Shown: positions 62,201 to 64,000 of the stretch, one piece after another
Position numbering within the stretch: position 1 is the first letter of the stretch
Layout: each line of letters opens with the position of its first letter
NCBI RefSeq assembly: GCF_048403405.1
Contig: NZ_CP183129.1
Reading direction: 5' to 3' (one strand)
Source of the DNA: Escherichia coli
GTDB lineage: Bacteria > Pseudomonadota > Gammaproteobacteria > Enterobacterales > Enterobacteriaceae
Length of the DNA: 64,000 nucleotides
Position numbers: made by a program

Positions 62201-64000
62201 CAGGTGAAACTTTCCGGCAGAAAAGCTGGTCGGTATTTGCTGAGGATGAGTGGCATCTCACGGATGCACTTGCGCTGACTGCGGGCAGCCGCTATGAACA
62301 TCATGAGCAATTCGGGGGACACTTCAGTCCGCGTGCATATCTGGTCTGGGATGTGGCAGATGCCTGGACGCTGAAAGGCGGTGTGACCACGGGATATAAG
62401 GCACCCAGAATGGGGCAGCTACATAAAGGGATTAGTGGTGTATCCGGGCAGGGAAAAACAAATCTACTTGGTAACCCCAACCTGAAGCCGGAAGAGAGCG
62501 TCAGTTATGAGGCTGGGGTGTATTACGATAACCCCGCCGGTCTGAATGCCAATGTCACAGGTTTTATGACTGACTTCTCCAACAAGATTGTCTCTTATTC
62601 CATAAATGATAACACCAATAGCTATGTAAACAGCGGAAAGGCCCGGTTGCATGGTGTGGAATTTGCCGGCACATTGCCGCTGTGGTCAGAGGATGTCACG
62701 CTGTCACTGAATTACACCTGGACCCGAAGTGAACAACGTGATGGTGATAACAAAGGTGCGCCGCTGAGTTATACCCCTGAACACATGGTGAATGCGAAAC
62801 TGAACTGGCAGATCACCGAAGAGGTGGCATCATGGCTGGGTGCCCGTTATCGCGGGAAAACACCACGTTTCACCCAGAATTATTCGTCACTGAGCGCTGT
62901 ACAGAAGAAAGTGTATGATGAGAAAGGAGAATACCTGAAAGCCTGGACGGTGGTGGATGCAGGTCTGTCGTGGAAGATGACGGATGCCCTGACGCTGAAT
63001 GCTGCGGTGAATAACCTGCTCAACAAGGATTACAGTGACGTGAGCCTGTACAGTGCCGGTAAGAGTACGCTGTATGCCGGTGATTACTTCCAGACGGGAT
63101 CATCAACAACAGGATATGTGATACCTGAGCGAAATTACTGGATGTCGCTGAACTATCAGTTCTGATAATAACAAAACGCTATCACTGACGGTAGAATACG
63201 TTGCCACTGCAACTCCTGGCGGAACAGTGGCAACGTATTAGGTTAAGTGCATTTCCGATCCGCTAATGAGATTTCGTTACCAACAACTAATATCGTCACA
63301 GGAAATGCACGGATTATTTTTAACTTATCATTTACATACTTGTCCAGAGTGTAAGCGCACCGTGAAGGACGTGGGGTAAAAATTAGTTTACAGAGAGAGT
63401 GACGTTCCAGGGCAACAACTCTTTCATGCGGTTGGCAGGCCAGGTGTTGATTACACTGATCACGTGGCGTAGCCACGTTTCCGGCTCGATTCCGTTAAGT
63501 TTTGCAGCTACCGATCAGGCTGTACATCACTGCCGCACTATCGCTCGTCATCTCAAAGTCCGGTCTCGTCAGCAGGAAGGTATCATTCTCTCCCGCCATT
63601 TTTCCGGGGGCCCGGTCAGATAAGTCCCTTTGTCTATCGCTGACTCCTGGCTCATAACCCGGTTAGCAGAATGCAGGGTCACCACCTCGCCACGACCGAA
63701 TCCGGATAAGTCAATTGCACCTTCTCAATCGCCATTTTGTCACAATTAAGTTTGATAAAGCAGGTCACCTCTGCACTGAATCTGCTCCAGTGCCTCATTG
63801 GTCTCCGTCCACCCCTTTAAACTGCCGGATAAGACTGCTGCACAGCGCCTTCCCCGGAATCAAATCACTTTCCCTGTCCGCCACAATCCGCTTCATGCCA
63901 CCTCGTATTTTGTTTCAGAGACCGGAATCTGCCAGAAAGTGACTACGCGTGCACATATCGGTTTTCTGGGTTACATGCATCGTGTTATTTTCTGAAATGC

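Follow-up and report, generated by a model that had tools for sequence, protein, structure and literature searches.

Insertion sequences of the IS66 family carry three open reading frames, tnpA, tnpB and tnpC. One intact 2705-bp element (locus L003, positions 3501–6205) has all three genes and GTAAGCG at both tips (3501 and 6205), and we take such intact relatives (2705–2707 bp) to resemble IS679 of the EPEC plasmid pB171. A different kind of cargo, genes of the DUF2235 family (Pfam PF09994), is found on STEC plasmids; PGAP also uses the name 'T6SS phospholipase effector Tle1-like catalytic domain-containing protein'. On the conjugative IncF plasmid pSTEC17_183-a (L006), an intact gene of this type (3041–4732, minus strand) encodes 563 aa and has a DUF2931 gene next to it, a pairing that resembles a toxin/immunity pair. 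In the Tle1–Tle4 lipases the serine of the GxSxG motif is the nucleophile. IncI1 plasmids, in turn, carry small hypothetical genes between the pnd (hok/sok-type) locus and trbA. Finally, iha belongs to the O157:H7 tellurite resistance/adherence island (TAI/OI-43, OI-48/SpLE1).

Pieces of this mobile DNA lie end to end beside iha in the 64,000-nt stretch of Escherichia coli DNA analysed here (the window). From left to right they are the 3′ flank of iha with a hairpin, 194 bp of an IS66 end, a tle1-like middle of ~350 bp and the start of an IncI1-like segment (Table 1). No working gene is present in the final ~760 bases of the window, which consist of the IS66 end, the tle1-like fragment and the plasmid-derived start. 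We put at roughly 90% the probability that 63351–64000 is a non-functional scar, built up on the right of the iha cassette by one mobile-element or deletion event after another. Judged from its sequence, no functional product is to be expected from this interval. Such a scar, lying where modules of a pathogenicity island meet, is of an ordinary and already understood sort, with nothing new in kind: IS remnants and pseudogene fragments are routine at island module joints, and the IS66 piece was already flagged in public annotation.

Many extraintestinal E. coli, among them ATCC 25922 (L001), have a sat-iha-pap pathogenicity island that matches the end of the window with 100% identity. ATCC 25922 served for reading past the window end (L001 positions become window positions on adding 54165). 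In 726 of 5426 complete genomes, 80% or more of window 63166–64000 is present, and the block at the window end is 99–100% identical in more than 700 genomes. This near-identity is consistent with recent spread; retained function may be compatible with it as well.

Table 1. Features of the iha cassette and of the scar to its right, in window coordinates
Feature	Position	Strand	Details
iha (bifunctional siderophore receptor/adhesin), intact	61075–63165	+	696-aa ORF; PGAP names iha in ATCC 25922 and many genomes
iha 3′ flank	63166–63350	+	kept in all iha loci examined; ends at IS tip; identical in O157:H7
Hairpin, perfect 15-bp stem	63195–63239	+	30 bp after iha stop codon; stem arms AAUACGUUGCCACUG...CAGUGGCAACGUAUU
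IS66-family right end	63351–63544	-	terminal inverted repeat and last ~53 tnpC codons; rest (~2.5 kb) missing
Joint, IS66 interior/tle1-like fragment	63530–63544	.	homologies overlap by ~12–15 bp (CCGCACTATCGC); three-way comparison
DUF2235/T6SS Tle1-like phospholipase gene, internal fragment (pseudogene)	63533–63883	-	residues ~141–236 and ~325–346 of the 563-aa relative
Internal tle1-like deletion joint	63588–63596	.	flanking homologies overlap by 9 bp
Altered GxSxG lipase motif	63689–63703	-	GFSRG in relative, GFGRG in window; alignments and sequence
Exit point of O157:H7-type islands from common sequence, to truncated terF	63742/63743	.	window 60586–63742 = L002 3027–6183, 99.5%
33-aa ORF MKRIVADRESDLIPGKALCSSLIRQFKGVDGDQ	63795–63896	-	chimeric frame across tle1-like/IncI1-like joint
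Joint, tle1-like fragment/IncI1-like segment	63869–63883	.	~14 bp microhomology (TTTCCCTGTCCGCCA); three-way alignment
IncI1-plasmid-like segment, first part	63869–64000	+	1.6 kb in all, on to about window-equivalent 65468

Several findings identify the IS66 end. First, 63351–63544, which starts 185 bp after iha, matches the right end of the intact L003 element with 96.9% identity over 194 bp (E about 2e-89). Second, what the earlier note had called a terminal-repeat-like motif is a real IS terminal inverted repeat (GTAAGCGCACCGTGAAGG..., beginning GTAAGCG), which starts at 63351 and has the sequence seen at both tips of the intact copy. Third, the tail of tnpC follows on the minus strand, with its stop codon at 63383–63385 and with one extra T in the run 63500–63503, relative to intact copies, that shifts the frame. 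The corrected 53-aa TnpC peptide matches the full profile of Pfam PF13817 (IS66 C-terminal element; E=9.3e-17, 61 bits against a cut-off of 30). PGAP has reached the same reading, naming 63383–63533 a 'transposase domain-containing protein' that is frameshifted and missing its N-terminus. The earlier note had described a frameshifted IS66 TnpC C-terminal fragment after iha and had staked that description on homology to IS66 transposases; both the fragment and the homology are borne out.

The piece shares with three-ORF IS66-family elements the GTAAGCG repeat, the PF13817 element and 96.9% DNA identity to copies on STEC plasmids and chromosomes, but keeps only the outer 194 bp. The TnpC DDE catalytic domain (PF03050), tnpA and tnpB, all of which the full copies L003 and L008 have, are absent from the window, where IS66 homology stops at 63544. 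At this piece there is one tip only, with no second terminal repeat and no 8-bp target-site duplication. It is an IS66 remnant, not an element, and transposition is impossible.

On its outer side the remnant still ends where an IS should. In strain 2011C_3361, whose iha locus is diverged (95% identity), the flank is held in common up to ~63349 and then gives way to unrelated sequence, one or two bases short of the IS66 tip. The boundary 63350/63351 is a true IS tip, unlike the three microhomology joints further right. The earlier note began its feature at 63243; its coordinates are at or near those found here, but 63243 itself lies in the iha 3′ flank. Within that flank, the RNA fold of 63160–63260 reaches −30.2 kcal/mol (z = −3.2 against shuffles). 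The hairpin just after iha is probably the end of the iha transcript, terminator-like though without a U-tract, and it was missed by the consensus terminator scan because the U-tract is lacking.

Beyond the IS66 end lies one pseudogene fragment, which the earlier note missed. A distant DNA search, with 63545–63760 against plasmids and the following sequence against E. coli genomes, led to the DUF2235 gene on STEC plasmids at 76–83% identity. By blastn, 63588–63882 aligns with L006 4001–4310 (78% over 311 bp, E=1e-67) and 63533–63596 with L006 3694–3757 (81% over 64 bp). The tblastn blocks switch among the three minus-strand frames and are separated by stops; the fragment contains at least three frameshifts as well as in-frame stops, misses both ends of the gene and has the same orientation as tnpC. 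When the frameshifts are corrected, the peptide is 63% identical over 107 aa to residues 142–244 of the L006 protein (E=3e-30) and 59% identical over 29 residues to residues 318–346.

The 563-aa relative itself matches PF09994 (E=1.6e-17, 64 bits; cut-off 27), and the corrected 120-aa peptide from the window matches no Pfam family at E≤10. The family was therefore assigned by pairwise homology to a profile-positive relative, at the protein and DNA E values just given, and this predicted membership rests on one intact relative and its Pfam match. A large-database protein search with the corrected peptide returned four short fragment ORFs and no closer intact relative, and none of the papers searched describes a tle1-like relic beside iha.

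Compared with intact DUF2235 genes, the fragment is recognisable in its identity to residues 142–244 and in its GxSxG region, but it retains only ~120 of 563 residues. Residues 1 to ~140 and 347–563 are missing; 243 bp (81 codons; L006 3758–4000) have been lost from its interior, between short direct repeats CTCTCC(C/T)GC; and a glycine stands in place of the motif serine, so that the predicted nucleophile is gone. Whereas the gene on the STEC plasmid is paired with a DUF2931 gene, the frameshifted fragment in the window has no such partner and is the remnant of a pseudogene rather than a toxin gene. In strain NCCP 13905 a 112-bp piece of the relic (L010 3990–4101, equal to window 63732–63843) stands by itself, with IS66-family fragments on either side and a sigA/sat-like autotransporter gene nearby, which shows further shuffling of the relic by IS66 activity.

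The last 132 bp of the window, together with ~1.47 kb beyond it, resemble IncI1 plasmid DNA: L001 9704–11303 is 95.8% identical over 1603 bp to the IncI1 plasmid L007 (3445–5047). Extension past the window end, which had been proposed in the earlier note and was made through ATCC 25922, thus reaches the far end of this segment at the position given in Table 1. Its first small gene starts 27 bp past the window end, and L001 9862–11389 (window-equivalent 64027–65554) holds four small hypothetical genes, the first three of them common to IncI1 plasmids; none of the four matches Pfam, and the two tested against NCBIfam gave no match there. The likeness is to the plasmid region between pnd and trbA, which has the same small hypothetical genes. 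The window segment differs in being chromosomal and in lacking the toxin–antitoxin locus. On plasmid L007 the homology starts 17 bp upstream of the hok/sok (pnd) leader, with an Rfam sok match at 3272–3428 (125.6 bits). Window homology begins at L007 3445, an Rfam search of window 62900–64000 found no sok match, and none of the hok/sok (pnd) type I toxin–antitoxin locus is in the window. The four small genes are followed by a fragment (81 bp) of the gene for a 'TOTE conflict system archaeo-eukaryotic primase'; the O10:H32 strain NMBU-W12E19 has this gene intact (L004 7503–9863, 2361 bp).

Where the tle1-like and IncI1-like sequences meet, the earlier note had reported a short minus-strand ORF around 63800–63900 with no assignable family. 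The ORF is there, exactly at 63795–63896 and with the quoted sequence, but its origin can be traced. Its body (ADRESDLIPGKALCSSLIRQFKGV) corresponds to residues ~141–165 of the decayed DUF2235/Tle1-like protein and aligns to ADGESDSILGKALGSSLIRQFEGV (residues 142–165); the ATG and MKRIV are on the IncI1-like side, ADRE is in the microhomology overlap and the remainder is tle1-like. Because the start codon lies in the IncI1-derived segment, the frame was made by the deletion joint. This ORF is not a gene but a chimera that happened to arise at the last joint.

We consider it very unlikely that this ORF is instead a real small gene of a family not yet known. Its ATG is preceded by a Shine–Dalgarno-like GAGGTGG, which however stands only ~2 nt away, and some annotation pipelines name the product 'hypothetical protein' (KGM67132.1, 224 contigs), whereas PGAP annotates neither it nor any other CDS in 63560–64000 among the matches listed. 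The peptide has no Pfam or NCBIfam match. Residues 6–29 align inside the 563-aa DUF2235 protein (142–165), with homology going on downstream in other frames, and the start codon is contributed by a different, IncI1-derived segment. A 415-aa protein (P0003, 'putative salt-induced outer membrane protein YdiY') that shares the 33-aa peptide's 90%-identity cluster was set aside as unrelated, apparently a clustering artefact. Being a chimera of the joint, the 'unassigned' ORF does not merit listing as a candidate gene in later work.

How the pieces came together can be read, in part, from the joints. The blastn homologies overlap at the first (IS66 to 63544, DUF2235 from 63533) and at the last (DUF2235 to about 63882, IncI1-like from 63869), and each of the three joints sits in 9–15 bp of chance similarity between its two partners. 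Microhomology of this length at all joints argues for illegitimate (microhomology-mediated) deletion or recombination and against transposition. Plasmid pSTEC17_183-a carries an IS66 right-end fragment (1167–1670), a replication-protein fragment, the DUF2931 gene and the intact DUF2235 gene, with the IS66 end and the DUF2235 gene arranged and oriented as the relics are in the window. One deletion could therefore yield the window arrangement from it, and the plasmid arrangement could be ancestral.

These observations, together with the presence of the IncI1-like segment, suggest that plasmid DNA was brought beside iha via IS66 and then whittled down. An IS66 element would have inserted just downstream of iha, and plasmid-type DNA carrying the toxin gene would have come to adjoin it. 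Deletions would later have stripped the IS of most of its length and the toxin gene of its 3′ third, its 5′ quarter and the internal 243 bp; a single one, from IS66 position ~194 to toxin-gene codon ~346, would give the joint seen in the window. We infer this history, and with it the order of events at the window end, from the sequences compared; no intermediate was found.

Other iha islands share part of the scar. The O157:H7 tellurite resistance/adherence island has in common with the window the stretch 60586–63742, which takes in iha and the IS66 end and runs on through the first 210 bp of the tle1-like fragment, internal deletion included. Past 63742 the O157 island passes into a terF that is cut off at residue ~108; the window has 140 bp more of tle1-like sequence and then IncI1-like DNA. 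In O157:H7 FRIK2455, the 128-aa 'TerD family protein' (L002 6120–6506) consists of TerF residues 1 to ~108 followed by 20 residues (DKMAIEKVQLTYLDLVVARW) from the tle1-like relic, and its TerD Pfam match covers profile positions 3–115 of 187. The O157:H7 'terF' is in this way shown to be a truncated chimera. Since the tle1-like homology of the window runs across 63742, the O157 arrangement is the derived one.

The overlap could also be read in the opposite sense, with 63545–63742 as the native downstream region plus the 3′ end of terF and with the UPEC iha cassette as a cut-down O157:H7 tellurite/adherence island. Window and O157:H7 agree as far as 63742, at the level given in Table 1, and the PGAP 'TerD family protein' CDS of O157 overlaps the last 64 bp. 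We nevertheless regard this reading as having almost no chance of being right. DUF2235 homology is continuous across 63742, from 63588 to 63882, so that both sides are DUF2235-like, and no TerF coding homology was found in the window. In the O157 protein the TerD Pfam match extends to residue 99 and the homology to plasmid-borne TerF to 102–108, which is the joint; the last 20 residues (DKMAIEKVQL...) are DUF2235-derived, and the full 413-aa terF of strain LSU61 has no DKMAIEKVQL tail. The continuous DUF2235 homology and the end of TerF homology at the joint rule out 63679–63742 as a terF 3′ remnant. A GTAAGCG at the O157 terF joint was considered as a further IS66 tip and rejected, as TerF homology to an Enterobacter plasmid runs through to residue 108.

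A full-length IS66 is found at the same iha junction in O157:H7 LSU61, a deer isolate (L008 9152–14110), where a 2707-bp element (9152–11858) with intact tnpC is accompanied by further IS66 remnants and by the full terF (a vWA domain protein), with no tle1-like relic. No target-site duplication was found at this element, whose 8-bp flanks differ (TCCAGAGT and TCATTATC). This IS66 has therefore recombined too and is not usable as a simple ancestor.

The remaining islands leave the common sequence slightly further on: O111:H8 at 63768, next to IS600, and O10:H32 at 63782, next to an ISEc22 insertion. Strain EC-10 lacks 63684–63762 (a 79-bp deletion). The earlier note had taken the window end as probably another module boundary of the island. 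Islands do diverge here, at 63742/63743, 63768 and 63782, but what had been seen as one boundary is three separate joints. The identical iha–IS66–tle1 scar in UPEC and STEC tellurite/adherence islands is a marker of common descent of the iha cassette. In the O111:H8 strain 7-58 72A (L009 4253–8209), IS600 cuts the relic at window-equivalent 63768 and is followed by ISEcp1 and blaCMY-2, an arrangement which means that a resistance gene has inserted next to iha in the chromosome.

Conservation of the block raises the question of whether it acts in cis for iha, as a 3′ UTR, terminator region or small RNA source, and has been kept by selection and not by hitch-hiking. The block 63166–63742 travels with iha in UPEC and STEC islands at 99–100% identity, and a strong hairpin directly follows iha. 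That hairpin, however, is located in the true iha flank and not in the relics, and the near-identity of the relic block is what is expected for recently spread DNA. The Rfam search of 62900–64000 returned no family, only sub-threshold snoRNA noise, and the promoter and terminator scan gave no sites above shuffle expectation, leaving the relic block with no canonical terminator and no promoter excess. IS insertions and deletions within 63684–63782 are tolerated in other strains, and an iha locus without the IS66 end exists. We judge such a cis-acting role improbable. Still less probable is that the relic block is not inert and supplies a functional 3′ UTR or small RNA for iha, or that the chimeric 33-aa frame is translated as a new micropeptide. 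The non-functional scar remains our reading of the block.

On its left, the sequence common to the other iha contexts examined starts exactly at 60586, and an IS3-family transposase ORF (59670–60575) ends just before this point, so that the iha cassette in the window has IS sequence on its left side too. At all the iha loci inspected, PGAP calls a 60-aa 'hypothetical protein' (WP_000922606.1; window 60954–61136, minus strand). On the strand opposite iha, this frame covers the promoter region and the initial 62 bases of the gene, and the call is probably spurious.
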